Assembly (NCBI RefSeq): GCF_040807025.1
Contig: NC_090970.1
Coordinates: 709,359 to 773,358, forward strand
Source of the DNA: Struthio camelus
Lineage: Eukaryota
Length of the DNA: 64,000 nucleotides
Direction: 5' to 3'
The notes under the pieces were generated by a model. That model worked only from the letters and a program-made list of their open reading frames with translations. It had not been told where the DNA came from and did not search any database. The position numbers were made by a program, and so were the translations under genes. Below are positions 578 to 60,705 of the stretch, one piece after another (the first letter of the stretch is position 1; each line of letters begins with the position of its first letter).

Positions 578-774
578 CTTGTGCTGCCGCAGCAGGCAGG
601 GCAGCAGGGTGAGGACGCCGCCGTCGTGCACCACCCACCACACGTCCAGGCAGCCGCCGCCCTCGCCGTCGCCGGCCGCCGCGGCCCCGCCCCCGGCCCC
701 GCCCCCCGGCCACGCCCCGCAGCCCTTGGCCACCAGCAGGGCGCGCCCGGCCGCCGCCGCCGCCCGCACCAGCC
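578..774 (-). CDS. SLC12A6: SLC12A6-like (KCC3-type K-Cl cotransporter) exon; C-terminal cytoplasmic domain ...[18 protein letters not shown]..(GA-rich insert)..[25 protein letters not shown]
   Basis: Minus-strand translation matches the KCC block R-C-TTAAHLALLVPKN...[24 protein letters not shown]. Acceptor tgtcccccccccgcag at 775-790, donor AAG|GTGGGG at 577. Starts phase 1 (gg), consistent with the preceding exon ending in +g. Length 197 = 2 + 65 codons. Further 3' exons lie left of the window. Confidence 0.75.
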
Positions 775-789
775 CTGCGGGGGGGGGAC

Positions 790-2265
790 AGGAGCGCGGC
801 GGGTGTCAGCACCGCGCATGCGCCGAGCGCGGCGGGTGTCAGCACCGCGCGTGCGCCGAGCGCGGCGGGTCTCAGCACCGCGCGTGCGCCGAGCGCGGCG
901 GGTCTCAGCACCGCGCGTGCGCCGAGCGCGGCGGGTGTCAGCACCGCGCGTGCGCCGAGCGCGGCGGGTGTCAGCACCGCGCATGCGCCGAGCGCGGCGG
1001 GTGTCAGCACCGCGCATGCGCCGAGCGCGGCAGGTCTCAGCACCGCGCGTGCGCCGAGCGCGGCGGGTCTCAGCACCGCGCGTGCGCCGAGCGCGGCGGG
1101 TCTCAGCCCCCACACGTGCGCCGAGCGCGGCGGGTCTCAGCCCACACGTGCGCCGAGCGCGGCGGGTCTCAGCCCACACGTGCGCCGAGCGCGGCGGGTC
1201 TCAGCCCCACACGTGCGCCGAGCGCGGCAGGTCTCAGCCCCACACGAGCACCGAGCGCGGCGGGTCTCAGCCCCACACGTGCGCCGAGCGCGGCAGGTCT
1301 CAGCCCACACGAGCACCGAGCGCGGCGGGTCTCAGCCCCACGCGTGCGCCGAGCGCGGCAGGTCTCAGCCCCACACGTGCACCGAGCGCGGCAGGTCTCA
1401 GCCCACACGTGCACCGAGCGCGGCAGGTCTCAGCCCCCACACGTGCACCGAGCGCGGCGGGTCTCAGCCCCACACGTGCACTGAGCGCGGCAGGTCTCAG
1501 CCCCCACACGTGCACCGAGCGCGGCGGGTCTCAGCCCACACGTGCACCGAGCGCGGCGGGTCTCAGCCCCACGCGTGCGCCGAGCGCGGCAGGTCTCAGC
1601 CCCACACGTGCACCGAGCGCGGCAGGTCTCAGCCCACACGTGCACCGAGCGCGGCAGGTCTCAGCCCCCACACGTGCGCCGAGCGCGGCGGGTCTCAGCC
1701 CCACACGAGCGCCGAGCGCGGCAGGTCTCAGCCCCACACGTGCACCGAGCGCGGCAGGTCTCAGCCCCACACGAGCACCGAGCGCGGCGGGTCTCAGCCC
1801 CACACGTGCGCCGAGCGCGGCGGGTCTCAGCCCCACACGAGCACCGAGCGCGGCGGGTCTCAGCCCCACACGAGCGCCGAGCGCGGCAGGTCTCAGCCCC
1901 ACACGAGCGCCGAGCGCGGCAGGTCTCAGCCCCACACGTGCACCGAGCGCGGCGGGTCTCAGCCCCACGCGTGCACCGAGCGCGGCAGGTCTCAGCCCCA
2001 CACGAGCACCGAGCGCGGCGGGTCTCAGCCCCACACGTGCGCCGAGCGCGGCGGGTCTCAGCCCCACACGAGCGCCGAGCGCGGCGGGTCTCAGCCCCAC
2101 GCGTGCACCGAACGTGTCCGTCCTCAGCCCCGTGCGTGCACCGAGCGCGCCCGTCCTCGACCCCCGGCCCCACGCGCGCCCCGAGCGCGCCCGTCCTCGA
2201 CCCCCGGCCCCACGCGCGCCCCGAGCGCGCCCGGCCTCGGCCCCCCGGCCCCCCCGGCGCCCCGG
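790..2265. repeat. 33-bp tandem repeat (TGTCAGCACCGCGCATGCGCCGAGCGCGGCGGG, drifting to CAGGTCTCAGCCCCACACGTG variants), about 44 copies, intron between the two 3'-most SLC12A6-like exons
   Basis: The period is directly visible. The first 9-10 units carry the NRF1 palindrome GCGCATGCGC. Confidence 0.85.
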
Positions 2266-2270
2266 CTCAC

Positions 2271-2463
2271 CGACGAAGGTGCGGGCGGGCCGCGCGTCGC
2301 CCCGCCGCCAGCCCCGGGGCCAGCCCAGCAGCAGCGTGTTGGGCCGCAGCGCCCCCAGGCCGCAGCCCTGCACCAGCTGCGCCAGCCCCTCGGCCGCCCG
2401 CGGCGCCACCACCGCCTGCGCGAAGCCCCGCAGCCCGGCCGCCGCCATCCGCCGCCGCAGCTC
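2271..2463 (-). CDS. SLC12A6: SLC12A6-like exon: ELRRRMAAAGLRGFAQAVVAPRAAEGLAQLVQGCGLGALRPNTLLLGWPRGWRRGDARPARTFV
   Basis: Aligns residue-for-residue with KCC [65 protein letters not shown]. Donor G|GTGAG at 2270. The acceptor cag at 2464-2466 has a weak, G-rich upstream tract. Phase 0 in, phase 1 out. 193 nt = 64 codons + 1. Confidence 0.8.
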
Positions 2464-2499
2464 CTGCCCCCCCGGCCCCGGGCAGCGCCGTCAGCCACG

Positions 2500-4615
2500 G
2501 CGGGCCCAGGCGTCCGGGGCACGGGCAGGGGGGCCCAGGCGTCCGGGAAGGGGCCCAGGTGTCCGGGAGGGAGGGGCCCAGGTGTCCGGGGAGAGGGGCC
2601 CCGGCGTCCGGGGAAGGGGCCCAGGCGTCCGGGGAGGGGGCCCAGGTGTCCGGGGGGGGCCCAGGTGTCCGGGGAGGGGGCCCAGGTGTCCGGGGGAGGG
2701 GCCCAGGCGTCTGGGAAGGGGCCCAGGTGTCCGGGGAAGGGGCCCAGGCGTCCAGGAAGGGTCCCAGGTGTCCGGGAGGGGCCCAGGTGTCCGGGGCAGG
2801 GGCCCAGGCATCCGGGGAAGGGGCCCAGGCGTCCGGGGAGGGGCCCAGGTGTCCGGGGCAGGGACCCAGGTGTCCGGGGAGGGGGCCCAGGTGTCCGGGG
2901 GAGGGGCCCAGGCGTCCGGGGAGGGGCCCAGGGGTCCGGGGCAGGGACCCAGGTGTCCGGGGAAGGGGCCCAGGCATCCGGGGGAGGGACCCAGGCGTCT
3001 GGGAAGGGGCCCAGGTGTCCCGGGAGGGGCCCAGGCATCCGGGAAGGGGCCCAGGTGTCTGGGGAAGGGGCCCAGGTGTCCGGGGAGGGGCCCAGGCGTC
3101 CGGGTGAGGGGCCCAGGTGTCAGGGGAGGGACCCAGGTGTCCGGGGCAGGGACCCAGGTGTCCGGGGGAGGGGCCCAGGCGTCCGGGGCAGGGGCCCAGG
3201 CGTCCGGGGAGGGACCCAGGCGTCCGGGAAAGGGGCCCAGGCGTCCGGGGCAGGGGCCCAGGTGTCCGGGGCAGGGGCCCAGGCGTCCGGGGGAGGGGCC
3301 CAGGCGTCCGGGGAGAGGGGCCCCGGCGTCCGGGGAAGGGGCCCAGGCGTCCGGGGAGGGGGCCCAGGTGTCCAGGGGGGGCCCAGGTGTCCGGGGAGGG
3401 GGCCCAGGTGTCCGGGGGAGGGACCCAGGCGTCTGGGAAGGGGCCCAGGTGTCCGGGGAAGGGGCCCAGGCGTCCAGGAAGGGTCCCAGGTGTCCAGGGA
3501 AGGGGCCCAGGTGTCCGGGGCAGGGGCCCAGGCATCCGGGGAGGGGGCCCAGGCGTCCGGGGAGGGGCCCAGGTGTCCGGGGCAGGGACCCAGGTGTCCG
3601 GGGAAGGGGCCCAGGCGTCCGGGGGAGGGGCCCAGGCGTCTGGGAAGGGGCCCAGGTGTCCGGGGAGGGGCCCAGGCGTCCGGGCAAGGGACCCAGGCGT
3701 CCGGGGGAAGGGGCCCAGGAGTCCGGGGGAGGGGCCCAGGCATCCAGGGGAGGGGCCCAGGCATCCGGGGGAGGGGCCCAGGCGTCCGGGGGAGGGGCCC
3801 AGGCATCCGGGGGAGGGGCCCAGGCGTCCGGGGGAGGGGCCCAGGTGTCCGGGGGAGGGGCCCAGGCATCCAGGGGAGGGGCCCAGGCATCCGGGGGAGG
3901 GGCCCAGGCATCCGGGGGAGGGGCCCAGGCGTCCGGGGCAGGGGCCCAGGCGTCCGGGGAGGGACCCAGGCGTCCGGGGGAGGGGCCCAGGCGTCCGGGG
4001 CAGGGGCCCAGGTGTCCGGGGCAGGGGCCCAGGCGTCAGGGGAGGGACCCAGGTGTCCGGGGGAGGGGCCCAGGCGTCCGGGGAAGGGACACAGGCGTCC
4101 AGGGAGGGGCCCAGGTGTCCGGGACAGGGACCCAGGTGTCCGGGGAAGGGGCCCAGGCATCCGGGGGAGGGACTCAGGCGTCTGGGAAGGGGCCCAGGTG
4201 TCCCGGGAGGGGCCTAGGCATCTGGGAAGGGGCCCAGGTGTCTGGGGAAGGGGCCCAGGTGTCCGGGGAGGGGCTCAGGTGTCCGGGGAAGGGGCCCAGG
4301 CGTCCGGGGGAGGGACCCAGGCGTCTGGGAAGGGGCCCAGGTGTCCGGGAAGGGGGGCCCAGGCGTCCGGGGAAGGGGCCCAGGCGTCCGGGGGAGGGGC
4401 CCAGGCGTCCAGGGAGGGGCCCAGGTGTCCGGGGCAGGGGCCCAGGCGTCCGGGGGAGGGGCCCAGGCGTCCAGGGAGGGGCCCAGGTGTCCGGGGCAGG
4501 GGCCCAGGCGTCCAGGGAAGGGGCCCAGGTGTCCGGGGCAGGGGCCCAGGCGTCCAGGGAAGGGGCCCAGGTGTCCGGGGCAGGGGCCCAGGCGTCCGGG
4601 GCAGGGTCCCAGGCG
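2500..4615. repeat. 18-bp satellite family, plus-strand orientation GGGGCCCAGGCGTCCGGG (reverse complement of the major form), intronic
   Basis: About 115 units of roughly 18 bp. It yields collagen-like artefact ORFs in several frames. Confidence 0.9.
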
Positions 4616-4632
4616 TCCGGGGGCAGACGCAC

Positions 4633-4801
4633 CTGCTCGGCGGCCCGCGCCTGCTCGTGGGCCTCCAGGAAGTCGCCGGGGATGACGGAGGCGACGACGG
4701 TGAGGCCTCCGGCCGCCTTGAGCTGGGCGGCCACCGACAGCAGCCAGGGCTGCTTCACCCGCAGCTCCTCGTCCAGCTTGAGCAGCACCAGCAGCTGCGG
4801 C
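4633..4801 (-). CDS. SLC12A6: SLC12A6-like exon: (R)[56 protein letters not shown]
   Basis: Near-identical in pattern to [62 protein letters not shown]. Acceptor cccctccgcgcag, donor CAG|GTGCGT. 169 nt = 1 + 56 codons. Confidence 0.9.
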
Positions 4802-4891
4802 CTGCGCGGAGGGGCCCAGGCGTCCGGGAAGGCCCCGCAAGTTAAGCGAGGGGCGCGCGAGCACGGGGCCCAGGCGTCCGGGCGCGCTCAC

Positions 4892-4996
4892 CTCCAGTTC
4901 TTGCTGTACTGCGGCGCCTCCTCCAGCCGCAGCAGGGCGAAGTGGGCGGCGCTCAGCGACAGCCCCCGCAGCCCGTCCCCCCACTCCTTCTCCGCC
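4892..4996 (-). CDS. SLC12A6: SLC12A6-like exon: (G)[34 protein letters not shown](R)
   Basis: Matches [38 protein letters not shown]. Acceptor ccctttcccggcag, donor AG|GTGAGC. The stop seen in the ORF track at 4888 is intronic. 105 nt = 1 + 34 codons + 2. Confidence 0.9.
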
Positions 4997-5039
4997 CTGC
5001 CGGGAAAGGGCCCAGGCGTCCGGGTGGGGCCGAGACGGC

Positions 5040-5780
5040 TGAGTCGATAGGCACCCACGCACCCGGGGCGAGAGGGACCCAGGCGTCCGGGGAGGGGCCC
5101 AGGCGTCCGGGGAGGGGCCCAGGTGTCCGGGGAAGGGCCCAGGTGTCCGGGGAGGGACCCAGGCGTCCGGGAAGGGGCCCAGGTATCCGGGGAGGGGGCC
5201 CAGGTGTCCGGGGAGGGGGCCCAGGCGTCCGGGCAAGGGGCCCAGGTGTCCGGGGAAGGGCCCAGGCGTCCGGGGAAGGGGCCCAGGCGTCTGGAGAAGG
5301 GGCCCAGGAGTTCGGGGAAGGGGCCCAGGTGTCTGGGGAGGGGCCCAGGTGTCCAGGAAACGGGGCCCAGGCATCCGGAGGAGGGGGCCCAGGTGTCCGG
5401 GGCAGGGGCCCAGGTGTCCGGGGAGGGGCCCAAGCGTCCGGGGAGGGACCCAGGTGTCCGGGGAGGGGCCCAGGTGTCCGGGGAGGGGCCCAGGCATCCG
5501 GGGAGGGGGCCCAGGTGTCCGGGAGGGGGCCAAGTGTCTGGGGAAGGGACCCAGGCATCCAGGGAGGGGCCCAGGAGTCCGGAGAAGGGCCTGGGTGTCC
5601 GGGGGGCCCAGGCATCCGGGGAGGGGCCCAGGTGTCTGGGGAAGGGACCCAGGCGTCCAGGGAGGGGCCCCAGCATCCGGGGAAGGAGACCCAGGTATGC
5701 AGGGAAGGGACTTCAGCTGTCCAGGGAAGGGGCCCAGGTGTCCGGGAGGGACCCAGGTGTCCGGGGCAGGGGCCCAGGCG
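5040..5780. repeat. 18-bp satellite family (GGGCCCAGGCGTCCGG orientation), intronic
   Basis: Same unit as 2500-4615. Confidence 0.85.
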
Positions 5781-5790
5781 TCCGGCTCAC

Positions 5791-5910
5791 CCCTGGTACT
5801 CGATGTACTTGTAGACGGTGCCGGCGATGCCCAGGGCGATGGCGGCGCACGACCACGACGCGATGAACATGAGCACCAGGCACAACCCCGCTCCCGCCAG
5901 CGACAGCCCC
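5791..5910 (-). CDS. SLC12A6: SLC12A6-like exon (TM12): (W)[39 protein letters not shown](G)
   Basis: Matches [45 protein letters not shown]. Donor GG|GTGAGC. 120 nt, phases 2 -> 2. Confidence 0.9.
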
Positions 5911-5999
5911 CTGCGGGCACCCAGGCGTCCGGGAGGGGCCCAGGCATCCGGGCAAGGGGGACCCAGGCGTCCGGGAGGGGCCCAGGCGTCCGGGCTCAC

Positions 6000-6119: not shown

Positions 6120-9100
6120 GCCCGTGTTGACCCGTGTTGACCCACGTTGACTTGTGTTGAGTCACGTTGACTCATCTTAGCCCATGTTGACCCCTACTGA
6201 CCCCGTATAGACTTATGTTGGCCCATGTTGACTCTTGTTGACCCGTGTTGGCATGTGCTGACCCACATTGACCCATGTCGACCTCCGCTGACTGACGCTG
6301 AGCCCTCTTGACTCTCGTTGCACCATGCTGACTTGCGTAGACCCGTGTTGACCCGTGTTCACCCATGTTGAGTCACGTCGACTCATCTTAGCCCATGTTG
6401 ACCCTCTATAAACTCATGTTGACCCATGTTGATGCTTGTTGACCCACATTGACTCTTGTTGACCCGTGTTGGCATGTGCTGACCCACGTTGACCCACGTT
6501 GACTGACGCTGAGCCCTCTTGACTCTCGTTGCACCATGCTGACTCGCGTAGACCCGTGTTGACCCGTGTTGACCCACGTTGAGTCATGTCGACTCATCTT
6601 AGCCCATGTTGACCCCCTACAAACTCATTGTTGACCCATGTTGATGCTCGTTGACCCACGTTGGCCCATGTTGACTCTCCTTCACCTGTGTTGGCTCGCG
6701 TTGGCACGTGCTGACCCACGTTGACCCATGTCAACCACCGCTGACTGACGCTGAGCCCTCTTGACTCTCGTTGTGCCATGCTGACTCGCATACACCCGTG
6801 TTGACATGTGTCGGCACGTGTTGACCCATGTTCACTAGCTTTGAGGCAGCTTGTTGCACGGTGACTCGCGTTGGCCTATGTTGACCTGCGTTGAGCTGCG
6901 CTGACCCACGTTGACTCTTGTTCATCCAAGTTGACCCGTGCTGACTCACGTTGACCCCTGTTGATGCGTGTTGATATGTATTGACTCGCGTTGACCCATC
7001 TTGATGTGCGCTGGCCCACGATGGCCACTGCTGACCCATGGTGATGTGTCTTGGCGCGCATTGTTCACTCACGCTGACCTGTGTTGAGCCATGTTGACTT
7101 GTGTTGGCCCCTGCTGACCTGTGTGAGCTGCGCTGACCCAAGTCCACCCATGTTGACTTGTGTTGAGTCATGTTGATCTATGTTGAGTCATGTAGTTCAC
7201 TCACGTTGATCTGTCTTGAGGTGCATTGACCCATGTTGACGCTCGTTGCCCCACGTTGGCCCACAATGACTCTCGTTCACCTGTGTTGGCTCGCGTTGGC
7301 ATGTGCTGACCCACGTTGACCCATGTCGGCCTCCGCTGACTGACGCTGAGCCCTCTTGACTCTCGTTGCACCATGCTGACTCGCGTAGACCCGTGTTGAC
7401 CCGTGTTGACCCATGTTGAGTCACGTCGACTCATCTTAGCCCATGTTGACCCTCTATAAACTCATGTTGACCCATGTTGACGCTCGTTGACCCATGTTGA
7501 CTCTTGTTGACCTGTGTTGGCATGTGCTGACCCACGTTGACCTCCGCTGACTGACGCTGAGCCCTCTTGACTCTCGTTGCACCATGATGACTCGCGTAGA
7601 CCCGTGTTGACCCGTGTTGACCCACGTTGAGTCACGCCGACTCATCTTAGCCCATGTTGACCCTCTATAAACTCATTGTTGACCCATGTTGATGCTTGTT
7701 GACCCACGTTGGCCCATGTTGACTCTCCTTCACCTGTGTTGGCTCGTGTTGGCACATGTGCTGACCCACGTTGACCCATGTCGGCCTCCGCTGACTGACG
7801 CTGAGCCCTCTTGACTCTCGTTGCACCATGATGACTCGCGTAGACCCGTGTTGACCCGTGTTGACACATGTTGAGTCATGTCGACTCATCTTAGCCCGTG
7901 TTGACCCCTTATAAACTCATGTTGAACCATGTTGACGCTTGTTGGCCCATGTTGACTCTTGTTGACCTGTGTTAGCATGTGCTGACCCACGTTGACCCAT
8001 GTCGACCTCCGCTGACTGACGCTGAGCCCTCTTGACTCTCGTTGCACCATGATGACTCGCGTAGACCCGTGTTGACCCGTGTTCACCCATGTTGAGTCAT
8101 GTCGACTCATCTTAGCCCATGTTGACCCCCTATAAACTCATGTTGAACCATGTTGACGCTCGTTGACCCATGTTGACTCTTGTTGACCCGTGTTGGCATG
8201 TGCTGACCCACATTGACCCATGTCGACCTCTGCTGACTGACACTGAGCCCTCTTGACTCTCGTTGCACCATGATGACTCGCGTAGACCCGTGTTGACCCG
8301 TGTTCACCCATGTTGAGTCATGTCGACTCATCTTAGCCCATGTTGACCCCCTATAAACTCATGTTGAACCATGTTGACGCTCGTTGACCCATGTTGACTC
8401 TTGTTGACCCGTGTTGGCATGTGCTGACCCACATTGACCCATGTCGACCTCTGCTGACTGACACTGAGCCCTCTTGACTCTCGTTGCACCATGCTGACTC
8501 GCGTAGACCCGTGTTGACCCATGTTGAGTCATGTCGACTCATCTTAGCCCATGTTGACCCCCTATAAACTCATGTTGACCCATGTTGATGCTCGTTGACC
8601 CACGTTGGCCCATGTTGACTCTCTTTCACCTGTGTTGGCTCATGTTGGCATGTGCTGACCCACGATGACCCATATCAACCTCCGTTGACTGACGCTGAGC
8701 CCTCTTGACTCTCGTTGCACCATGCTGACTCGCGTAGACCCCTGTTGACCCGTGTTGACCCATGTTGAGTCACGTCGACTCATCTTAGCCCATGTTGACC
8801 CTCTATAAACTCATGTTGACCCATGTTGACGCTCGTTGACCCATGTTGACTCTTGTTGACCCGTGTTGGAATGTGCTGACCCACGTTGACCCATGTCGAC
8901 CTCCGCTGACTGACGCTGAGCCCTATTGACTCTCGTTGTGCCATGCTGACTCGCGTAGACCTGTGTTGATGCATGTTGGCACGTGTTAACCCATGTTCAC
9001 TTGCGCCGAGCACCGTTGACCCAGCTTGTTCCATGTTGACTCATGTTGACCTGCGCCGGCCCACGTTGACTCTTGTTCATCCAAGTTGACCCACGTTGAT

Positions 9101-10040
9101 GCATGTTGGTATGTGTTGACTCAGCTTCGCGTGCGCTGGCCCACGTTGGCTGCTGCTGACCCACGTCGACATGTCTTGACGCACGTTGACCACTGTTGAG
9201 CCATGCTGGCTCCTGCTGACCTGTGTGAGCTGCGGTGACCCGAGTCCACCCGTGTTGACTCATGTTGAGCTTGCTGACCCATGTTCACTCACGTTGATCT
9301 GTCTTGAGGCACACTGTCCCATGTTGACTCTTGTTGAGTCACGTTGGGCCGTGTTGACTTGTGTTGATGTGTGTTGGCCCGTGTTGACTGGTGTTGGTCC
9401 CTGTTGACCTATGCTGACCCATACTGACTCTTGTAGACCCACGTTGACCCAGGTTGACTCACGTTGACTCATACTGACCAGCGTTGATGTGTGTTGGGCC
9501 ACGTTGACTCCTCTTGAGCACAGCTGACCCACGTTGGCTTGTGTTGACCCACGTTGAGTCGTGTTGACCCGTGTCGGCTCACGTCAATTCATGCTGACCT
9601 GTCTTCACCCACATTGACTTGTCTTGTCCCGTGTTGACTTGCGTTGACTGGTGCTGACCCTTGTTGACCCCCTATTGAGCTGAGCTCACCCGTGTTGACC
9701 CACTTTGAACCACGTTGACTCCTGTCACTCCGTGTTGGCCCGTGTTGACTCACGTTGAGCTGTACTGACCCGTGTTGGCCCATGCTCGCTCCTGTTGACC
9801 CGTGAGGGGCTGTGTCGACTCGTGTTGACGCATGTTGACGTGTGTTGGCTCACGTTGACTCATGTCGACCAGTGTTGACCCATGTTGTTCCACGCTGACC
9901 CAGGTTGACTCGCGTTGACCCACGTGTGCACGTACAGCTCCCTTTCGGCTTATGCTGACACGTGTTGAATCGTGTTAACCCGTGTTGGCGCGTGTCAGCC
10001 TGTGTTGACCCTGATAGACTCCTTTTGACTTCTGCGGACT
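6120..10040. repeat. GTTGAC decamer-based satellite (YNCGTGTTGACCCR subunits of about 10-11 bp) organised in a 211-221-bp higher-order repeat. About 3.9 kb, filling one SLC12A6-like intron.
   Basis: Small minus-strand ORFs recur with 211-221-bp spacing (6172, 6383, 6594 ... 8328). It is A/T-richer than its surroundings. Confidence 0.85.
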
Positions 10041-10128
10041 CATATTGACCCGTGTTGATCCGCGTCACCCGATCCATTGCCCTCCTCACGTACCCGCACC
10101 CCCACCAACACGCGTGCACCCCACGTAC

Positions 10129-12950: not shown

Positions 12951-12954
12951 CTGA

Positions 12955-48789: not shown

Positions 48790-51290
48790 CCCACGGTGTC
48801 ACCCAGCCCCACGGCGTCACCCTGTCCCACGGCGTCACCCCCAGCCCCACGGCGTCACCCCCAGCCTCACAGTGTCACCCAGCCCCACAGCGCCACCCAG
48901 CCCCACAGCGTCACCCCCAGCCTCACAGTGTCACCCAGCCCCACGGTGTCACCCTCAACCCCACGGCGTCACCCAGCCCCACGGCGTCACCCCCAGCCTC
49001 ACAGTGTCACCCAGCCCCACGGTGTCACCCTCAACCCCACGGTGTCCCCCCCAGCCCCACGGCGTCACCCCCAGCCCCCCGGTGTCCCCCCCCGGCCCCC
49101 CGGCGCCCGCTGACCGTGGCGCGGTTGAGGTGCAGGTCGGGGTTCTTGGCCGCTTCGGGGTCCACCTTCTCCTGGGGGGCAGCGCGGGGCAGCGGCGTCA
49201 CCCCCGGCCCCCGGCCCCACGGCACCCAGCCCCACGGCACCCACAACATCCAGCCCCACAACACCCACAACACCCAACACCCACAACACCCAGCCCCACA
49301 GCACCCACAACACCCAACCCAACAACACCCAACACCCACAACACCCAACCCCCACAGCACCCAACCCCACAACACCCAACACCCACAACACCCAACACCC
49401 ACAACACCCAGCCCCACAGCACCCACAACACCCAACACCCACAACACCCAACCCCCCAGCACCCACAACCCCCAACCCCACAACACCCAGCCCCCACAAC
49501 ACCCAGCCCCACAACACCCAACACCCACAACACCCACAACACCCAACCCCCCAACACCCACAACCCCCAGCCCCACAACACCCAGCCCCACAACACCCAC
49601 AACACCCAACACCCACAACACCCAGCCGCACAACAACCAGCCCCACAACACCCACAACACCCAACACCCACAACACCCAACCCCCCAGCACCCACAACCC
49701 CCAGCCCCACAACACCCAGCCCCACAACACCCACAACACCCAACACCCACAACACCCAGCCGCACAACAACCAGCCCCACAACACCCACAACACCCAACA
49801 CCCACAACACCCAACCCCCCAACACCCACAACCCCCAGCCCCACAACACCCAGCCCCACAACACCCACAACACCCAACACCCACAACACCCAGCCGCACA
49901 ACAACCAGCCCCACAACACCCACAACACCCAACACCCACAACACCCAGCCCCACAACAACCAGCCCCACAGCACCCACAACACCCAACCCCACAGCACCC
50001 ACAACACCCAACCCCACAACACCCAGCCCCACAACACCCAACACCCACAACACCCACAACACCCAACACCCACAACACCCAGCCCCACAACACCCAACAC
50101 CCACAACACCCACAACACCCAGCCCCCACAACACCCAGCCCCACAACACCCAACACCCACAACACCCACAACACCCAACCCCCCAACACCCACAACCCCC
50201 AGCCCCACAACACCCAGCCCCACAACACCCACAACACCCAACACCCACAACACCCAGCCCCACAACAACCAGCCCCACAGCACCCACAACACCCAACCCC
50301 ACAGCACCCACAACACCCAACCCCACAACACCCAGCCCCACAACACCCAACACCCACAACACCCACAACACCCAACACCCACAACACCCAGCCCCACAAC
50401 ACCCAGCCCCACAACACCCAGCCCCACAGCACCCACAACACCCAACCCCACAGCACCCACAACCCCCAACCCCACAACACCCAGCCCCACAACACCCAAC
50501 ACCCACAACACCCAGCCCCACAACACCCAACCCCCACAGCACCCAACCCCACAGCACCCACAACACCCAACCCCACAACACCCAACCCCACAACACCCAA
50601 CACCCACAACACCCAACCCCACAACACCCAACACCCACAACACCCAACACCCACAACACCCAACCCCACAACACCCAGCCCCACAACACCCAACACCCAC
50701 AACACCCAGCCCCACAACACCCAACCCCACAGCACCCACAACACCCAACCCCACAACACCCAACCCCACAACACCCAACCCCACAACACCCAACACCCAC
50801 AACACCCAACCCCACAACACCCAACACCCACAACACCCAACACCCACAACACCCAACCCCACAACACCCAGCCCCACAACACCCAACACCCACAACACCC
50901 AGCCCCACAACACCCAGCCCCACAGCACCCACAACACCCAACCCCATAGCACCCACAACCCCCAACCCCACAACACCCAGCCCCACAACACCCAACACCC
51001 ACAACACCCAGCCCCACAGCACCCACAACCTCCAACCCCATAGCACCCACAACCCCCAACCCCACAACACCCAGCCCCACAACACCCAACACCCAACCCC
51101 ACAGCACCCACAACCCCCAACCCCACAGCACCCACAGCACCCACAACACCCAACACCCACAACACCCAGCCCCACAGCACCCACAACACCTAACCCCACA
51201 ACACCCAACACCCCCAACCTCCAACCCCCCAGCACCCCCAACCGCCAGCCCCCCCCGCACCCGTAGCCCCCCCCAGCACCCACAACCCCC
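48790..51290. repeat. CACAACACCCARC satellite (about 12-bp subunits), 2.5 kb (TTC5 intron 5)
   Basis: About 200 subunits. The antisense translates to GCCG/VGCC-rich artefact ORFs. Confidence 0.9.
49115..49171 (-). CDS. TTC5: TTC5 exon 6: EKVDPEAAKNPDLHLNRAT
   Basis: Matches TTC5 EKVDRKASSNPDLHLNRAT. Acceptor gccccccag. The donor ACG|GTCAGC is weak. 57 nt. Confidence 0.8.
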
Positions 51291-51429: not shown

Positions 51430-54400
51430 CCCCCGTCGGCCCCCGGCCACGCACACGCCAAGGGGGGGGGCTGGCGGGTGCGCGAACACGCCAAGGGGGG
51501 GCTGGTGGGTGTGTGAACACGCCAAGGGGGGCTCGCGGGTGTGCGAACACGCCAACGGGGGGCTCATGGGTGTGCGAACACGCCAAGGGGAGCTCGCGGG
51601 TGTGCGAACACGCCAAGGGGGGTTCGCGGGTGTGCGAACACGCCAAGGGGGGTTCGCGGGTGTGCGAACACGCCAAGGGGGGCTCACGGGTGTGCGAACA
51701 CGCCAAGGGGGGCTGGCGGGTGTGTGAACACGCCAACGGGGGGCTGGCGGGTGTGCGAACACGCCAAGGGGGGCTGGCGGGTGTGCGAACACGCCAACGG
51801 GGGGCTGGCGGGTGTGCGAACACGCCAAGGGGGGCTGGCGGGTGCGCGAACACGCCAAGGGGGGCTGGCGGGTGTGTGAACACGCCAACGGGGGGCTGGC
51901 GGGTGTGCGAACACGCTAAGGGGGGCTCGCGGGTGTGCGAACACGCCAAGGGGGGCTCACGGGTGTGCGAACACGCCAAGGGGGGCTGGCGGGTGTGTGA
52001 ACACGCCAACGGGGGGCTGGCGGGTGTGCGAACACGCCAAGGGGGGCTGGCGCGTGTGCGAACACGCCAAGGGGGGGCTGGTGGGTGTGTGAACACGCCA
52101 AGGGGGGCTGGCGTGTGTGTGAACACGCCAACGGGGGCTGGCGTGTGCGCAAACACGCCAACGGGGGGCTGGCGGCTGTGCGAACACGCAAAGGGGGGTT
52201 CGCGGGTGTGCGAACACGCCAAGGGGGGGCTCACGGGTGTGTGAACACGCCAAGGGGGGGCTCACGGGTGTGCAAACACGCCAAGGGGGGCTGGCGGGTG
52301 TGCGAACACGCCAAGGGGAGCCCGCGTGTGTGCGAACACGCCAACGGGGGCTGGCGGGTGTGTGAACACGCCAACGGGGGCTCGCGTGTGTGTGAACACG
52401 CCAACGGGGGGCTCGCGTGTGTGCGAACACGCCAAGGGGGGCTCGCGGGTGTGTGAACACGCCAACGGGGGGCTCACGGGTGTGCGAACACGCCAACGGG
52501 GGTTGGCGGGTGTGCGAACATGCCAACGGGGGGCTGGCGGGTGTGCGAACACGCCAAGGGGGGCTGGTGGGTGCGCGAACACGCCAAGGGGGGGCTCACG
52601 GGTGTGCGAACACGCCAAGGGGGGCTCGCGGGTGTGCGAACACGCCAAGGGGGGCTGGCGGGTGTGCGAACACGCCAAGGGGGGGCTCACGGGTGTGCGA
52701 ACACGCCAAGGGGGGCTGGCGGGTGTGCGAACACGCCAAGGGGGGGCTCACGGGTGTGCGAACACGCCAAGGGGGGCTCGCGGGTGCGCGAACACGCCAA
52801 GGGGGGCTGGTGGGTGTGCGAACACGCCAAGGGGGGCTGGTGGGTGCGCGAACACGCCAAGGGGGGGCTGGCGGGTGTGCGAACACGCCAACGGGGGGGG
52901 CTGGCGGGTGCGCGAACACGCCAAGGGGGGCTGGCGGGTGCGCGAACACGCCAAGGGGGGCTCGCAGGTGTGCGAACACGCCAAGGGGGGCTGGCGGGTG
53001 TGCGAACACGCCAAGGGGGGGCTCACGGGTGTACGAACACGCCAAGGGGGGGCTGGCGGGTGTGCGAACACGCTAAGGGGGCCTCACGTGTGCGCAAACA
53101 CGCCAACGGGGGGCTCGCGTGCGTGCGAACACGCCAAGGGGGACTCGCGGGTGTGCGAACACGCCAAGGGGGGGCTGGCGGGTGTGTGAACACGCCAACG
53201 GGGGGCTGGCGGGTGTGTGAACACGCCAAGGGGGGCTCGCGGGTGTGCGAACACGCCAAGGGGGGGCTCACGGGTGTGTGAACACGCCAACGGGGGGTTC
53301 ACGGGTGTGCAAACACGCCAAGGGGGGCTGGCGGGTGTGCGAACACGCCAAGGGGAGCCCGCGTGTGTGCGAACACGCCAACGGGGGGCTGGCGGGTGTG
53401 TGAACACGCCAACGGGGGCTCGCGTGTGTGTGAACACGCCAACGGGGGGCTCGCGTGTGCGCAAACACGCCAAGGGGGGCTCGCGGGTGTGTGAACACGC
53501 CAACGGGGGGCTCACGGGTGTGCGAACACGCCAACGGGGGTTGGCGGGTGTGCGAACATGCCAACGGGGGGCTGGCGGGTGTGCGAACACGCCAAGGGGG
53601 GCTGGTGGGTGCGCGAACACGCCAAGGGGGGGCTCACGGGTGTGCGAACACGCCAAGGGGGGCTCGCGGGTGTGCGAACACGCCAAGGGGGGCTGGCGGG
53701 TGTGCGAACACGCCAAGGGGGGGCTCACGGGTGTGCGAACACGCCAAGGGGGGCTGGCGGGTGTGCGAACACGCCAAGGGGGGGCTCACGGGTGTGCGAA
53801 CACGCCAAGGGGGGCTCGCGGGTGCGCGAACACGCCAAGGGGGGCTGGTGGGTGTGCGAACACGCCAAGGGGGGCTGGTGGGTGCGCGAACACGCCAAGG
53901 GGGGGCTCACGGGTGTGCGAACACGCCAACGGGGGGGGCTGGCGGGTGCGCGAACACGCCAAGGGGGGCTGGCGGGTGCGCGAACACGCCAAGGGGGGCT
54001 CGCAGGTGTGCGAACACGCCAAGGGGGGGCTCACGGGTGTACGAACACGCCAAGGGGGGGCTGGCGGGTGTGCGAACACGCTAAGGGGGGCTCACGTGTG
54101 CGCAAACACGCCAACGGGGGGCTCGCGTGTGTGCGAACACGCCAAGGGGGACTCGCGGGTGTGCGAACACGCCAAGGGGGGGCTGGCGGGTGTGTGAACA
54201 CGCCAACGGGGGGCTGGCGGGTGTGTGAACACGCCAAGGGGGGCTCGCGGGTGTGCGAACACGCCAAGGGGGGGCTCACGGGTGTACGAACACGCCAAGG
54301 GGGGGCTGGCGGGTGTGCGAACACGCCAAGGGGGGCTCACGGGTGTGCGAACACGCCAAGGGGGGGCTGGCGGGTGTGCGAACACGCTAAGGGGGGCTCA

Positions 54401-54790
54401 CGGGTGTGCAAACACGCCAACGGGGGGCTCGCGTGTGTGCGAACACGCCAAGGGGGACTCGCGGGTGTGCGAACACGCCAAGGGGGGGCTGGTGGGTGTG
54501 CGAACACGCCAACGGGGGGCTGGCGGGTGTGCGAACACGCCAACGGGGGGCTGGCGGGTGTGCGAACACGCCAAGGGGGGCTGGCGGGTGTGTGAACACG
54601 CCAATGGGGGGCTGGCGGGTGTGCGAACACGCCAAGGGGGGGCTGGTGTGTGTGCGAACACGCCAACGGGGGGCTGGCGGGTGTGCGAACACGCCAAGGG
54701 GGGCTGGCGGGTGTGTGAACACGCCAACGGGGGCTCACGGGTGCGCGAACACGCCAAGGGGGGCTCGCGTGTGCGCGCACACGCTAAGGG
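51430..54790. repeat. 30-bp satellite CGAACACGCCAAGGGGGGCTSGCGGGTGTG, about 110 copies, 3.3 kb (TTC5 intron 4)
   Basis: A very regular period is directly visible. Confidence 0.95.
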
Positions 54791-55222
54791 GTGCTCGCAC
54801 GTGCGCGTACGCGCGCCATGGCTGCACACGCCAACGGCCACTCCCCACGCGTGCACACGCCAGTGCCGCGCTGAACACGCGTGTGCGCGTCCCCGGATGC
54901 GGCTCCGGACGCACACGCGTGGCAAGGCAGTGCTTAACGCGCGCGCGCGTCCCGAGGCACCGCTAAGCGCACGCTAAGGCTTCCTTACATACGTGCAGCC
55001 GCCAACACGCCGAGCAGCACGTGCACGCGGTAACGACACGCTTAGCACACGCCAAGGGTCCCCTTCGCCCGTGCACGCAGCCAGCGCTCCCTCAACACGC
55101 GTGTGCGCACGCCAAAGCACCGCCAGACGCACGCGTGCCCCAACCGGGACCCCCCCCCCCCGCCGGGTGCACACGCGTGTCCGTCCCCCCCCAACACGCG
55201 TGTCCGGGCCGGGCGGACTCAC

Positions 55223-55439: not shown

Positions 55440-58200
55440 AGCGCACGCGCTAAGCACGTGTGACCCCCCCCGAACACCCTGCCGCGACCCACGCGTGTCC
55501 CCCAGCCCCGCATCGTGACCCACACGTGTCCCCCAGACCCGCACGTGTCCCCCAGCCCCGCACTGGGACCCACATGTGTCCCCCAGTCCCGCACTGGGAC
55601 CCACGCGTGTCTCCCAGACCCACATCGCAACCCACACGTGTCCCCCAGACCCACACGTGTCCCCCAGTCCCGCACTGGGACCCACGCGTGTCCCCCAGAC
55701 CCACATCACAACCCACACGTGTCCCCCAGACCCACACCGGGACCCACACATGTCCCCCAGCCCCACATCATGACCCACACGTGTCCCCCAGACCTGTACG
55801 TGTCCCCCAGCCCCGCACTGGGACCCACACGTGTCCCCCAGCCCCACATCATGACCCACACATGTCCCCCAGACCCACACGTGTCCCCCAGCCCCGCACC
55901 GGGGCCCACACGTGTCCCGCAGCCCCTCTCCGTGACCCACACGTGTCCCCCAGCCCCACATCGCGACCCACACGTGTCCCCCAGCCCCACACGTGTCCCC
56001 CAGCCCCACATCGCGACCCACACGTGTCCCCCAGCCCCTCTCCGTGACCCACATGTGTCCCCCAGCCCCGCATCGTGACCCACACGTGTCCCCCAGCCCC
56101 GCATCGCGACCCACACGTGTCCCCCAGACCCGCACGTGTCCCCCAGCCCGACACCAGGACCCACACGTGTCCCGCAGCCCCTCTCTGGGACCCACACGTG
56201 TCCCCCAGCCCCGCATCGCGGCCCACACGTGTCCCCCAGACCCACACGTGTCCCCCAGCCCCGCATCGCGACCCACACGTGTCCCCCAGACCCGCACGTG
56301 TCCCCCAGACCCACACCGGGACCCACACGTGTCCCGCAGCCCCTCTCCATGACCCACACGTGTCCCCCAGCCCCGCACTGGGACCCACACGTGTCCCCCA
56401 GACCCGCACCGGGACCCACACGTGTCCCACAGCCCCTCTCTGTGACACACACGTGTCCCCCAGACCCACATCGTGACCCACCCGTGTCCCCCAGACCCTC
56501 TCTGTGACACACACGCGTCCCCCAGCCCCCCGCCGTGCCCCACACGTGTCCCCCAACCCCTCGCCGTGCCCCACCCGTGTCCCCCAGCCCCCGCCGTGCC
56601 CCACACGTGTCCCCCAGCCCCCCGCCGTGCCCCACACGTGTCCCCCAGCCCCCCGCCCTGCCCCACCCGTGCCCCCCAGCCCCCCGCCGTGCCCCACACG
56701 TGTCCCCCAACCCCTCGCCGTGCCCCACACGTGTCCCCCAACCCCCGCCGTGCCCCACACGTGTCCCCCAACCCCTCGCCGTGCCCCACACGTGTCCCCC
56801 AGCCCCCCGCCGTGCCCCACCCGTGTCCCCCAGCCCCCGCCGTGCCCCACACGTGTCCCCCAGCCCCCCGCCCTGCCCCACCCGTGTCCCCCAGCCCCCG
56901 CCGTGCCCCACACGTGTCCCCCAGCCCCCCGCCCTGCCCCACCCGTGCCCCCCAGCCCCCCGCCGTGCCCCACACGTGTCCCCCAGCCCCCCGCCCTGCC
57001 CCACGTGTCCCCCAACCCCCTGCCGTGACCCACACGTGTCCCCCAGCCCCCTGCCGTGCCCCACACGTGTCCCCCAGCCCCCCGCCGTGACCCACACGTG
57101 TCCCCCAGCCCCCCGCCGTGACCCACACGTCTCCCCCAGCCCCCCGCCGTGCCCCACACGTGTCCCCCAGCCCCCTGCCGTGACCCACACGTGTCCCCCA
57201 GCCCCCCGCCGTGCCCCACACGTCTCCCCCAGCCCCCCGCCGCGACCCACACGTGTCCCCCAGCCCCCTGCCGTGACCCACACGTGTCCCCCAGCCCCCC
57301 GCCGTGCCCCACACGTGTCCCCCAACCCCCGCCGCGACCCACACGTGTCCCCCAGCCCCCTGCCGCGACCCACACGTGTCCCCCAGCCCCCCACCGTGCC
57401 CCACACGTCTCCCCCAGCCCCCCGCCACGACCCACACGTCTCCCCCAGCCCCCCGCCGCGACCCACACGTCTCCCCCAGCCCCCCGCCGTGCCCCACACG
57501 TCTCCCCCAGCCCCCCGCCGCGACCCACACGTGTCCCCCAGCCCCCCGCCGCGACCCACACGTGTCCCCCAGCCCCCTGCCGTGACCCACACGTGTCCCC
57601 CAGCCCCCCGCCGCGACCCACACGTGTCCCCCAGCCCCCTGCCGTGACCCACACGTGTCCCCCAGCCTCCCGCCGTGCCCCACACGTGTCCCCCAACCCC
57701 CGCCGCGACCCACACGTGTCCCCCAGCCCCCGCCCTGCCCCACACGTGTCCCCCAGCCCCCCGCCGTGCCCCACCCGTGTCCCCCAGCCCCCCGCCGTGC
57801 CCCACACGTCTCCCCCAGCCCCCCGCCGTGCCCCACACGTCTCCCCCAGCCCCCCGCCGCGACCCACACGTGTCCCCCAGCCCCCTGCCGTGACCCACAC
57901 GTGTCCCCCAGCCTCCCGCCGTGCCCCACACGTGTCCCCCAACCCCCGCCGCGACCCACACGTGTCCCCCAGCCCCCGCCCTGCCCCACACGTGTCCCCC
58001 AGCCCCCCGCCGTGCCCCACCCGTGTCCCCCAGCCCCCCACCGTGCCCCACCCGTGTCCCCCAACCCCCCGCCCTGCCCCACACGTGTCCCCCAGCCCCC
58101 CACCCTGCCCCACACGTGTCCCCCAGCCCCCGCCCTGCCCCACCCGTGTCCCCCAACCCCCCGCCCTGCCCCACCCGTGCCCCCCAGCCCCCCGGGGCGG
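55440..58200. repeat. About 30-bp satellite CACACGTGTCCCCCAGCCCCGC(RYCGTGMC), each unit carrying a canonical E-box CACGTG. About 90 copies, 2.7 kb (TTC5 intron 3).
   Basis: CCCACACGTGTCCCCCAGCCCC recurs throughout. Confidence 0.9.
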
Positions 58201-58429: not shown

Positions 58430-59470
58430 GGGCCGGGGGGGGGGTCATTCGGGCCCCACGGCGTCGCCTCTGCCCCACGGCGCCGGGGCGGGAGGGGGGG
58501 GGTGCTGAGCGGGCAGGGGGCCCCGGGGCATTGTGGGATACGCTGGGGGAGCTATCGGCAGGGTGGATTGTGGGACGGAGAGCGAACGGCTGCCCCAGGG
58601 CATCGTGGGGTAGAAGGGGGAGGTGCTGCCCCACAGCATCGTGGGGTAGAAGGGGGAGGCGCTGCCCCACGGCATCGTGGGGTAGAAGGGGGAGGCGCTG
58701 CCCCAAGGCATCGTGGGATAGAAGGGGGAGGTGCTGCCCCACGGCATCGTGGGGTAGAAGGGGGAGGTGCTGCCCCACGGCATCGTGGGGGAGGGGAGCC
58801 GCCACCCCAGGGCATCATGGGACGCAACAGAGCACCTACTGCCCCACGGCATTGTGGGATACAGGAGGGGAGCTGCTGCCCCAGGGCATCATGGGATAGA
58901 GCGGGGGAGCTACTGCCCTGGGGCGTTATGGGCTGTGTGCCGTGGGGCAGGACCCCTGCCCCAGAGCATTATGGGTTGTGGGGCAGGACCTCCACCCCAG
59001 AGCATTATGGGTTGTGGGACAGGACCCCTGCCCCAGAGCATTATGGGTTGTGGGGGCAGGACCTCCACCCCAGGGCATTATGGGCCTCGTGCTGTGGGGC
59101 AGGACCCCTACCCCAGGGCATTGTGGGTCATGGGGCAGGACCTCTGCTCTGAGGCATTATGGGCCACGTGCCGTGGGGCAGGACCCCCGCCCCAGAGCAT
59201 TATGGGCCATGGGGCAGGACCTCCACCCCAGGGCATTATGGGCCACGTGCTGTGGGGCAGGACCCCCACCCCAAGGCGTTATGGGGATGCCCTGGGGACC
59301 TCTGCCCCAGGGCATTATGGGTCACGTGCCATGGAGCAGAACCCCCACCTTGGGGCACTACGGGCCGCGGGCCGTGGGGCGGGACCCCCACCCCACGGTA
59401 TGACGGGCCATGGGGCAGGACCCCCGCCCCGGGGCATCGTGGGCCGCGCGCCGTGGGGCAGGACCCCCGC
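58430..59470. repeat. Two adjacent ~30-45-bp tandem families (CATCGTGGGGTAGAAGGGGGAGGYGCTGCCCCAYGG and GCATTATGGGYYGTGGGGCAGGACCYCYGCCCCAGR) (TTC5 intron 2)
   Basis: Direct repeats visible at 58600-58800 and 58930-59300. Confidence 0.75.
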
Positions 59471-59498
59471 CCCGGGGCATCGTGGGCCGCCGCCGCAC

Positions 59499-59679
59499 CT
59501 TGCACCTCCTCCATGCGCCGCAGCGTCCTCTCCATCTCCTCCTCGAGGGCGGCGGCGGCCGCCGCGTCCCCGCTGCCGTCCCCGCCGGTGTCACCGCCGG
59601 TGTCACCGCCGCCGTCACCGCCGCCCCCCGGCGCCCGCCGCAGCCCGTCCCGGAACCGGTACAGCTCCGCCACCAGCTC
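59499..59679 (-). CDS. TTC5: TTC5 exon 2: ELVAELYRFRDGLRRAPGGGGDGGGDTGGDTGGDGSGDAAAAAALEEEMERTLRRMEEVQ(V)
   Basis: Matches TTC5 ELVDQLYSFRDCYF...QKEMEKTLQQMEEVVG. It contains a Gly/Asp low-complexity insertion encoded by GGTGACACCGCC repeats. Acceptor tggtgttccag, donor G|GTGCGG. 181 nt. Confidence 0.8.
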
Positions 59680-59699
59680 CTGGAACACCAGTGTCAGCA

Positions 59700-60540
59700 G
59701 GGCCCAGGCGTCCGGGGATGCCCCCGAGGGGCCCAGGCGTCCGGGGATGCCCCCAGGGACCCAGGCGTCCGGGGATGCTCCCGGGGGGCCCAGGCGTCCG
59801 GGGATGCTCCCGCGGGGCCCAGGCGTCCGGGGATCCTCCCGCGGGGCCCAGGAGTCCGGGGATCCTCCCGGGGGACCCAGGCGTCCGGGGACGCTCCCGC
59901 GGGAACCCAGGAGTCCGGGGATGCTCCCGGGGGGCCCAGGCGTCCGGGGATGCTCCCGCGGGAACCCAGGAGTCCGGGGATGCTCCTGGGGGACCCAGGC
60001 GTCCGGGGACGCTCCCGAGGGGCCCAGGCGTCCGGGGATGCTCCCAGGGAACCCAGGCGTCCGGGGATGCCCCCAGGGACCCAGGAGTCCGGGGATGCTC
60101 CCGGGGGGCCCAGGCGTCCGGGGACGCTCCCGCGGGACCCAGGCGTCCGGGGATGCTCCCGGGGGGCCCAGGCGTCCAGGGACGCTCCCAGGGACCCAGG
60201 CGTCCGGGGATGCTCCCAGGGACCCAGGCGTCCGGGGATGCTCCCGCGGGGCCCAGGCGTCCGGGGATGCTCCCGCGGGGCCCAGGCGTCCAGGGACGCT
60301 CCCAGGGACCCAGGCGTCCGGGGACGCTCCCAGGGACCCAGGCGTCCGGGGATGCTCCCGGGGGGCCCAGGCGTCCGGGGATGCTCCCGCGGGGCCCAGG
60401 CGTCCGGGGATGCTCCCGCGGGGCCCAGGCGTCCGGGGATGCTCCCGGGGGGCCCAGGCGTCCGGGGATGCTCCCGGGGGGCCCAGGCGTCCGGGGATGC
60501 TCCCGCGGGCCCAGGTGTCCGGGGATGCCCCCGAGGGGCC
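59700..60540. repeat. About 29-bp variant of the 18-bp family (GGCCCAGGCGTCCGGGGATGCTCCCGSGG), TTC5 intron 1
   Basis: About 28 units. It shares the GGCCCAGGCGTCCGGGGA core. Confidence 0.85.
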
Positions 60541-60603
60541 CAGGCGTCCTGGTCTGCCCCTCCCCCCCCCGCCAGGGGCCCAGGCGTCCGGGGCCGCCCC
60601 CAC

Positions 60604-60705
60604 CTCCAGGGTCCGCAGCGCCTCCGCGTCGCCGTCGCCTTCCTCCTCCTCCTCCTCCTCCTCCTCCTTCGCCACCGCCGGCTCCGCCGGCTCCGCCGCC
60701 GCCAT
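60604..60705 (-). CDS. TTC5: TTC5 exon 1: MAAAEPAEPAVAKEEEEEEEEEGDGDAEALRTLE
   Basis: ATG at 60705-60703 in good Kozak context (gccATGg). It has an acidic N-terminus like human MMADEEEEVKPILQKLQ. Donor GAG|GTGGGG. The (GAG)9 is a coding microsatellite. Confidence 0.75.

Follow-up and report, generated by a model that had tools for sequence, protein, structure and literature searches.

Tandem arrays fill the introns and spacers of a putative ostrich microchromosome stretch and resemble the sequence stuttering of avian dot chromosomes

The locus and its tandem arrays

The window analysed here is the whole of a 64-kb stretch of ostrich (Struthio camelus) DNA with a G+C content of 72%. Its recognisable genes, an SLC12A6/KCC3-like gene, NOP10, TTC5 and a CCNB1IP1-like gene, all lie on the minus strand, and the introns and spacers between their exons are filled with tandem arrays (Table 1). 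Tandem Repeats Finder (TRF) placed 80% of the window in such arrays, whereas coverage of five dinucleotide-preserving shuffled controls was 0.1-0.4%; the repetitiveness is therefore far above chance. Much of the remaining 20% is exons and promoters. An earlier note, made from the letters of the window, had described nearly every intron as repeat-filled, and this is borne out, with TRF coverage of at least 50% in 25 of the 28 complete introns. A closer inspection of the three exceptions revealed that two are decayed repeats which TRF scores poorly (a ~134-bp AACACG unit and a CCCCAAAA array), whilst the last one, only 92 nt long, consists of two units of a 20/21-bp family, hereafter F21.

Array units range from 10 to 485 bp with a match level of 57-94%, and autocorrelation put most periods near 10, 20-21, 31, 41 and 62 bp. 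The arrays themselves are 0.3-10.8 kb long, interleaved with coding sequence every ~1-4 kb, and by size they are minisatellites. They approach to within 0-15 nt of most splice donors; that of NOP10 starts 5 nt past the donor. Intronic G-quadruplex (G4) motifs are far more numerous on the sense strand (193) than on the antisense strand (41).

Most of the families named in the earlier note are present where expected, although several periods had to be corrected. Those found in SLC12A6 introns are the 33-bp, GTTGAC/221-bp, GGGGAC, CCCCAAAA, 57/114-bp CCATCTTG, 154-bp and CACGGGTGGAC/485-bp families, and the C-rich 31-bp, 175-bp segmental, CACAACA, 30/61-bp, E-box 31/62-bp and 29/86-bp arrays are likewise present. 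By autocorrelation the family described as 18-bp, which is F21, has an actual unit of 20/21 bp and a dimer of 41 bp, and the NOP10 array, given as 12-bp, has a period of 16-17 bp. The repeat listed as 180-bp AACACG exists, but direct-repeat analysis resolves it into three copies of a decayed ~134-bp unit. An 11/22-bp family was not identified with certainty in the window.

Table 1. Genes and tandem arrays of the window. SLC12A6 introns are labelled by their flanking exons (K19/K18 is the intron between exons 19 and 18).
Feature	Position	Strand	Location and remarks
SLC12A6 (KCC3)-like gene	25664 down to 575	minus	19 approximate exons; continues past window start
SLC12A6 exons 1-7 (approximate)	25664-25505, 25412-25348, 25255-25166, 24249-24055, 23071-23005, 22273-22143, 19140-18911	minus	
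SLC12A6 exons 8-13 (approximate)	17652-17474, 16535-16410, 13866-13768, 12925-12868, 10934-10745, 10229-10129	minus	
SLC12A6 exons 14-19 (approximate)	6098-6000, 5910-5791, 4996-4892, 4801-4633, 2463-2271, 774-575	minus	
NOP10	40437-40384, 39497-39354	minus	two exons, 64 aa
TTC5 exons 1-5	60705-60604, 59679-~59486, ~58420-58208, 55358-55223, 51412-51321	minus	
TTC5 exons 6-10	49171-49115, 47887-47741, 47031-46844, 46333-46189, 44668-44504	minus	
CCNB1IP1 (HEI10)-like coding exons	~62530-63230 (approximate limits)	minus	upstream of TTC5; from open reading frame translations
CCCCACAGCGAC array, 12/20/32-bp	1-577		intron 3' of SLC12A6 exon 19, clipped by window start
33-bp array (41 copies) and 40-bp array	792-2264		intron K19/K18; private at 10-mer level
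F21 array, core GGACGCCTGGGCCCC on minus strand	2530-5995	minus	introns K18/K17, K17/K16, K16/K15, K15/K14
GTTGAC 10-bp / 221-bp higher-order array	6121-9922		intron K14/K13; core GTCAACAYGG, 51 copies, minus strand
Decayed ~134-bp repeat, 3 copies, AACACG sub-repeats	10261-10706		intron K13/K12
GGGGAC 11/20/31/132-bp array	11121-12858		intron K12/K11
Decayed CCCCAAAA(T) array, period ~10-11 bp	12940-13757		intron K11/K10
F21 array, 123 core copies	13870-16396	plus	intron K10/K9
57/114-bp array with GCGGCCATCTTGG (YY1-like core)	16640-17421		intron K9/K8
154-bp array, 5.3 copies	17609-18430		intron K8/K7; begins within exon 8
CAACACGGGTGGAC 10/62/485-bp array	19279-22043		intron K7/K6
Degenerate F21 arrays	22279-23013, 23244-23791, 24282-25158	plus	introns K6/K5, K5/K4, K4/K3
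21-bp GAACCCCCATTTCGCGGTCCC arrays	25825-27712		intergenic, upstream of SLC12A6 exon 1
F21 array 10.8 kb, 41-bp dimer, 263 copies	28292-39139	plus	SLC12A6-NOP10 spacer
Array of unit GAGCGGGACCGGGGGGG (16-17 bp), sense strand G-rich	39551-40378	minus	NOP10 intron
F21 array	40562-41054	minus	upstream of NOP10
72-bp array with CCAAGATGGCCGCC (YY1-like core)	41764-42680		NOP10-TTC5 spacer
164-bp array (GTCCCCACGTCC, reverse complement of GGGGAC core)	42914-44406		downstream of TTC5
31-bp array, sense strand ACTGGGAGGGGGATTGGGGGCACTGGGAGGG	44839-46184		TTC5 intron 9
153-bp array	46362-46831		TTC5 intron 8
175-bp array	47847-48420		TTC5 intron 6; includes copies of exon 7 5' end
76-bp array	48782-49092		TTC5 intron 6
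CACAACACCC array	49216-51290		TTC5 intron 5
30/61-bp array, sense-strand core TTGGCGTGT	51465-54795		TTC5 intron 4
31/62-bp array containing CACGTG	55486-58194		TTC5 intron 3
~158-bp arrays, sense-strand core CCCATRATGCCCTGGGG	58589-59494		TTC5 intron 2
29/86-bp array built around F21 core	59700-60549	minus	TTC5 intron 1
GCCGCCATCTTGCCCACC (YY1-like) arrays	61087-62167		between CCNB1IP1 and TTC5 start

Private families and the dispersed family F21

All inter-exon segments were compared with one another by blastn and by shared abundant 10-mers. Around 15 arrays have no abundant 10-mers in common with the rest of the window. F21 (sequence CCGGACGCCTGGGCCCCTCC), counted by its 15-nt core with at most 2 mismatches, is the exception: 874 core copies cover ~20 kb, or 31% of the window. 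These lie in 9 of the 18 SLC12A6 introns and in TTC5 intron 1 (ten introns), in part of the NOP10-TTC5 spacer, and in the 13.7-kb SLC12A6-NOP10 spacer, of which they make up 79%. Moreover, F21 occurs in both orientations inside the same gene, the copies at 2530-5995 being opposite to those at 13870-16396, 22279-25158 and 28292-39139. A single expansion is therefore insufficient, and separate seeding events or inversions are needed. The stretch at 2530-5995 is broken up by three exons (4633-4801, 4892-4996 and 5791-5910). A text search of the literature with the F21 unit string gave no match.

Four SLC12A6 introns are only ~90 nt long, and three of these hold 2-4 F21 units and nothing of their own; the introns at 25413-25504, 4802-4891 and 5911-5999 contain little beyond these units and the splice signals. 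Such introns may represent either the seeds or the remains of arrays.

Besides F21, another three cores are found in more than one place. GTCAACAYGG is present in 51 copies in K14/K13 and 30 in K7/K6, mutually inverted; GGGGAC[AG]T in 52 copies in K12/K11 and 50, again inverted, in the array downstream of TTC5; and the YY1-like core CCATCTTG in the K9/K8 array and two promoter-proximal ones. Several C-rich arrays also show 64-69% blastn similarity to each other; they share no abundant 10-mers and the similarity was treated as compositional. The proposal that each intron carries a private family therefore stands for roughly half of the introns. The companion claim, that a single short family is shared and no other recurs, is an understatement, as F21 alone accounts for about one third of the window and is joined by the three cores above.

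Arrays with YY1-like motifs (GCCATCTTG or GCCATGTTG) were seen at 16640-17421, 41764-42680 and 61087-62167 of the window and at 9969-10335 and 44601-45443 of the emu locus. In each of the two species such arrays lie immediately before the starts of TTC5 and NOP10, and they are also present in the zebra finch locus (18742-19637 and 22631-24146 in L011). Promoter-proximal motifs thus seem to have been amplified as well. Motifs of the CCCCAAAATGG / CCCCATTTT type occur at 12940-13757 and 25825-27712 of the window, at 3773-4733 of the emu locus and at 13851-15638 of zebra finch L003, and may be an old dispersed avian microchromosome family.

Arrays built from adjacent exons

The BLASTn bit score of at least 42.1 in the proximal intron, which is the published threshold for exon stuttering, was passed by two arrays. 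In the array of K8/K7, 42 nt from the 5' end of SLC12A6 exon 8 are copied five times. In the 175-bp array of TTC5 intron 6 the 5' end of exon 7 is copied three times, the nearest copy being 100% identical over 51 nt, splice acceptor included. Exon stuttering is seen in the emu and zebra finch loci too. Below the same threshold, NOP10 exon 1 contains at 40393-40408 a GAGCGGGGGGAGCGGG that closely resembles the adjacent intron-array unit GAGCGGGACCGGGGGGG.

Amplification in place, as the earlier note had it, is borne out for the intron-specific families: two arrays carry the ends of adjacent exons and, as described below, motifs of TTC5 and NOP10 introns are found again, with their orientation unchanged, in the emu orthologues of these introns.

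Comparison with emu and other species

The emu locus (GCA_036370855.1, 52 kb) carries TTC5 and NOP10 in the same order as in ostrich, and TRF coverage of the whole locus is 88%. Lengths differ greatly: TTC5 spans 32 kb in emu and 16.2 kb in ostrich, the NOP10 intron measures 3.6 kb and 886 bp respectively, and orthologous introns differ two- to tenfold (e.g. TTC5 intron 8, 510 bp in ostrich vs 5,100 bp in emu).

By four analyses, the closest counterpart of each ostrich intron in emu is its orthologue. Firstly, in an ostrich-by-emu blastn matrix the diagonal coverage reaches 0.58-0.98 in 8 of 9 TTC5 introns as well as in the downstream spacer, and matches off the diagonal are few. Secondly, random 60-nt ostrich windows match 13-46 identical bases in the orthologous emu segment vs 7-13 in most non-orthologous ones, with the peak at the emu orthologue in 10 of 11 rows. 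Thirdly, diagnostic motifs, picked after both sequences had been seen, are restricted to orthologous introns of the two species and share the same orientation. Thus GGGACCGGGGGG is found in 22 copies in the ostrich NOP10 intron, 34 in that of emu and nowhere else, and TTGGCGTGT in TTC5 intron 4 has 104 copies in ostrich and 32 in emu; core CCCATRATGCCCTGGGG is common to TTC5 intron 2 of both. Lastly, of the repeated 11-mers shared between the species, taken with no hand-picking, 173/254 fall on the diagonal, a figure reached by 0 of 100,000 permutations.

Copies inside one ostrich intron resemble each other far more than they resemble those of emu: in 8 of 11 segments, 42-59 bases of a 60-nt window are matched elsewhere in the intron. 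The array loci thus appear to be old, because the same motif lies in the orthologous emu intron, whilst the arrays themselves would turn over fast within a lineage, because their copies are homogenised. The ostrich-emu split dates back tens of millions of years. We consider it about an even call that the intron arrays are long-lived loci which predate this split and were homogenised in each lineage, together with a palaeognath-wide F21 that colonised introns in either orientation.

The same tests run with the ostrich introns against the zebra finch telomere-to-telomere (T2T) locus gave no diagonal, which provides a negative control for artefacts of base composition. Ostrich and zebra finch have just the ACTGGGAGG family in common, at non-orthologous introns. 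Members of the family that forms the 31-bp array of TTC5 intron 9 were found in intron 9 of emu and in introns 7-8 of zebra finch. To judge from this comparison, the motifs appear to have been replaced on the neognath side. F21 cores number 202 in the 52 kb of the emu locus, where TTC5 intron 1 also holds the family; none was found in the zebra finch, turtle and Penelope loci, and Cariama has one near-match. TTC5 spans 12.6 kb in zebra finch T2T, 3.3 kb in Cariama and 7.3 kb in turtle, with TRF coverages of 76%, 23% and 10% respectively. The tinamou (1.4-kb contig) and Penelope (gap-filled) NOP10 loci come from short-read assemblies and are uninformative on arrays.

An alternative is that dispersed satellite families, perhaps carried by mobile elements or spread by ectopic recombination, landed in the introns and were not amplified there. 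This is true of F21, given its 874 copies in ten introns and three spacers, its two orientations and its abundance in the emu locus, and the cores GGGGACAT, ACTGGGAGG, CCCCAAAATGG and CCATCTTG are found at other loci and in other birds. However, most arrays lack abundant 10-mers common to other segments, two are built from the adjacent exon, and in emu the motifs specific to an intron are confined to its orthologue. As a general account, dispersal is unlikely.

A further suggestion was that repeat-filled introns are selected, either as spacers, as the earlier note had asked, as G4/R-loop elements acting in transcription or splicing, or as recombination hotspots. The persistence of array loci and motifs at orthologous positions in ostrich and emu would fit, as would the strong bias of G4 motifs to the sense strand and the YY1-like site arrays near the TTC5 and NOP10 promoters of both species. 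Against this, orthologous intron lengths vary up to tenfold, so that selection as spacers finds no support; zebra finch has other motifs in their place; Cariama, where TTC5 spans just 3.3 kb, and turtle both have a compact gene with few repeats; and several SLC12A6 introns make do with ~90 nt. Mutational bias alone can explain the persistence, and we regard maintenance by selection as quite improbable.

The NCBI emu TTC5 model begins with a peptide translated from a GCCGCCATGTTGG tandem array (emu locus 10001-12384), and its first exon is probably mis-annotated. In zebra finch (GCA_048771995.1) two NOP10-like genes with short introns lie on the small chromosomes CM109824.1 and CM109828.1. They were rejected as syntenic counterparts, since each adjoins an FXYD-family gene, unlike NOP10 in ostrich and emu.

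Gene models and integrity of the assembly

The SLC12A6 model was built by tblastn and Smith-Waterman alignment with a human KCC3 sequence, and its junctions were refined on GT-AG sites. It includes a KCC3a-type N-terminus, MAAVRFVVTPAK. A protein search with the concatenated exon peptides returned as its sole match a bacterial SLC12-domain fragment on an irrelevant contig. In exon 19, at 682-718, three copies of a 12/13-bp CGGCCCCGCCCC lie in the coding sequence and add Gly/Ala-rich residues that human KCC3 lacks; TTC5 exons 1-2 likewise contain GD repeats and a run of E. Short repeats thus expand in exons too if the frame is kept.

The closest database relatives of NOP10 are bird NOP10 proteins, the best being that of tinamou (88%), and its exon-2 peptide is 100% identical between emu and ostrich. 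TTC5 has 10 exons, all of its introns are GT-AG, and it runs to a stop at 44504 from an ATG at 60705, exactly the end coordinate of the region covered by the earlier note. The model equals the NCBI Struthio camelus TTC5 protein, differing solely at the exon 2/3 junction; the next-best relatives are kiwi (81%) and emu (85%). Upstream of TTC5, two open reading frame translations, CEDLLLCNYRKCRAKLAGYAWVTACSHIFCD and ERLMERNRQYQKLQGLYDGLRLRN, belong to what we take to be a CCNB1IP1 (HEI10)-like gene, which brings the number of genes in the window to four, all on the minus strand. A zf-RING_5 gene occupies the matching position in the turtle locus, and CCNB1IP1 lies upstream of TTC5 in human also. 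An Rfam scan of the window returned no RNA family.

These models bear on whether the arrays are an assembly artefact, with repeats collapsed, expanded or joined into chimeras where sequencing is difficult. Dot-chromosome minisatellites do cause coverage dropouts in PacBio HiFi data. However, all exons are in order with canonical GT-AG splice sites and open frames, and the TTC5 and NOP10 reading frames are complete. The architecture is the same in emu, whose assembly is independent and has matching motifs at the orthologous sites; introns of this type are also seen in zebra finch T2T, and Nanopore reads confirmed such arrays in chicken (PMC12954441). For the arrays as a class, an artefact is therefore very unlikely.

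Interpretation

Taken together, these data point to a gene-dense stretch of a small ostrich microchromosome that shows the 'sequence stuttering' of avian dot chromosomes, with old array loci and a dispersed F21; we put the probability of this reading at roughly 85%. Under it, introns and spacers would undergo tandem duplication of short motifs that are rich in G+C and for the most part measure a multiple of ~10-11 bp. Slippage, unequal exchange or gene conversion would then expand and contract the arrays, in a context of high recombination and many G4 motifs. Purifying selection on exons and splice sites would bound each array to its own intron, and most families would look private as a result. 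F21 would be the exception, as a dispersed family, also in emu, inserted both ways in ten introns and in spacers.

Several points weigh against this reading. The molecular mechanism of expansion is one that we infer. When six repeat units were folded as single-stranded DNA, their z-scores against shuffles ranged from -1.7 to +1.0, i.e. no special hairpin propensity, and simple hairpins therefore do not account for the expansions. Exact copy numbers and array lengths rest on one ostrich assembly. The motifs shared with emu could stem from independent expansion of conserved seeds and not from inherited arrays. Finally, the window is taken as the homolog of the chicken dot chromosome carrying SLC12A6, a class assigned by synteny and by the size of the contig (6.96 Mb, on which the NCBI record of ostrich TTC5 sits) and not by karyotype.

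The dot-chromosome stuttering architecture, known in chicken and zebra finch, would then be present in a palaeognath too, in an extreme form. The comparison with emu adds time depth, in that motifs have stayed in orthologous introns despite two- to tenfold changes in copy number and intron length. The modest added value of these data lies in evidence that array loci are long-lived and conserved in position, and that one dispersed family, the 20/21-bp repeat that ostrich has in common with emu, is dominant. If the arrays were inherited, the published inference of independent expansion in each species would need revision, and the rates at which arrays are born, persist and are replaced would become measurable across palaeognaths. 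The results also bear on the evolution of GC-rich, highly recombining microchromosomes and on why their genes were long 'missing' from assemblies, as well as on how far splicing tolerates arrays that lie a few bases from splice sites or even duplicate them.

Comparison with known systems

The closest known system is the 'sequence stuttering' of chicken dot-chromosome genes described by Hron et al. 2026 (Genome Biol Evol; PMC12954441). SLC12A6 is listed there in paralogon 10A, which corresponds to the dot chromosome chr34 of chicken, and the SLC12A6-NOP10-TTC5-CCNB1IP1 synteny of the window fits this paralogon. In both cases imperfect motifs of tens to hundreds of bases are locally expanded, one or a few per intron; the blocks are isolated in introns whilst exons stay intact; parts of adjacent exons and splice sites are copied; G+C is extremely high in the coding sequence; and the repeats extend to intergenic DNA. 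Confinement of blocks to single introns, a feature of stuttering, is likewise found for most ostrich families, with F21 as the exception. A depletion of transposable elements also belongs to the stuttering pattern. Within-species length variation is one of its three hallmarks and is shown by 86% of chicken dot-chromosome introns (PMC12954441); the earlier note had suggested that each array became fixed.

There are also differences. From the finding that related species carry different repeats in orthologous introns, Hron et al. inferred that the expansions were independent and species-specific, whereas ostrich and emu share intron-specific motifs. Their description gives no such emphasis to a dispersed family as the 20/21-bp repeat, with about a third of the sequence, calls for here, and ostrich is a palaeognath.

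Intronic minisatellites have also been reported on the dot chromosomes of the zebra finch T2T genome (bioRxiv 10.1101/2025.10.14.682431), and the tandem repeats of zebra finch dot-chromosome introns are the subject of work by Smeds et al. (bioRxiv 10.1101/2025.10.17.683159). As in ostrich, those introns are more than 70% tandem repeat, and one specific minisatellite is abundant in introns and intergenic euchromatin. Smeds et al. report the same clustering of periods, at multiples of 10-11 bp, and the intronic enrichment of G4 motifs on the coding strand agrees with the ostrich bias (193 vs 41). The motifs differ, however: the F21 core is absent from the zebra finch loci compared, and the ACTGGGAGG family alone is common to both.

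The 41-bp dimer of F21 has the period of the chicken PO41/CNM repeats, which also have a G-rich and a C-rich strand, although the likeness is by period alone. PO41 is reported to be enriched in the non-heterochromatic, gene-rich part of a chicken dot chromosome (PMC9974502). CNM is centromeric and PO41 has been described as subtelomeric, whereas F21 was not found in the neognath loci examined, and a relation between F21 and PO41 is a lead based on the period.

More distant are the Y-linked fertility genes of Drosophila (Fingerhut & Yamashita, as cited in PMC12954441), which in that account also have repeats inside the introns of functional genes and are transcribed through them. There, simple satellites of megabase length lie in heterochromatin within a few testis-specific genes, whereas the ostrich repeats are minisatellites of 0.3-11 kb in GC-rich euchromatin, where the genes are of housekeeping type and almost all of their introns are affected. 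Nor do the ostrich arrays fit classical satellite DNA, with its homogeneous arrays of tens of kb to Mb in gene-poor heterochromatin. The earlier note had drawn a contrast with satellites confined to centromeres or telomeres, as a departure from what is usual; for bird dot chromosomes, this has already been published. The ostrich arrays are thus not a new kind of element but a real feature, and an instance of a phenomenon already described for avian dot chromosomes.

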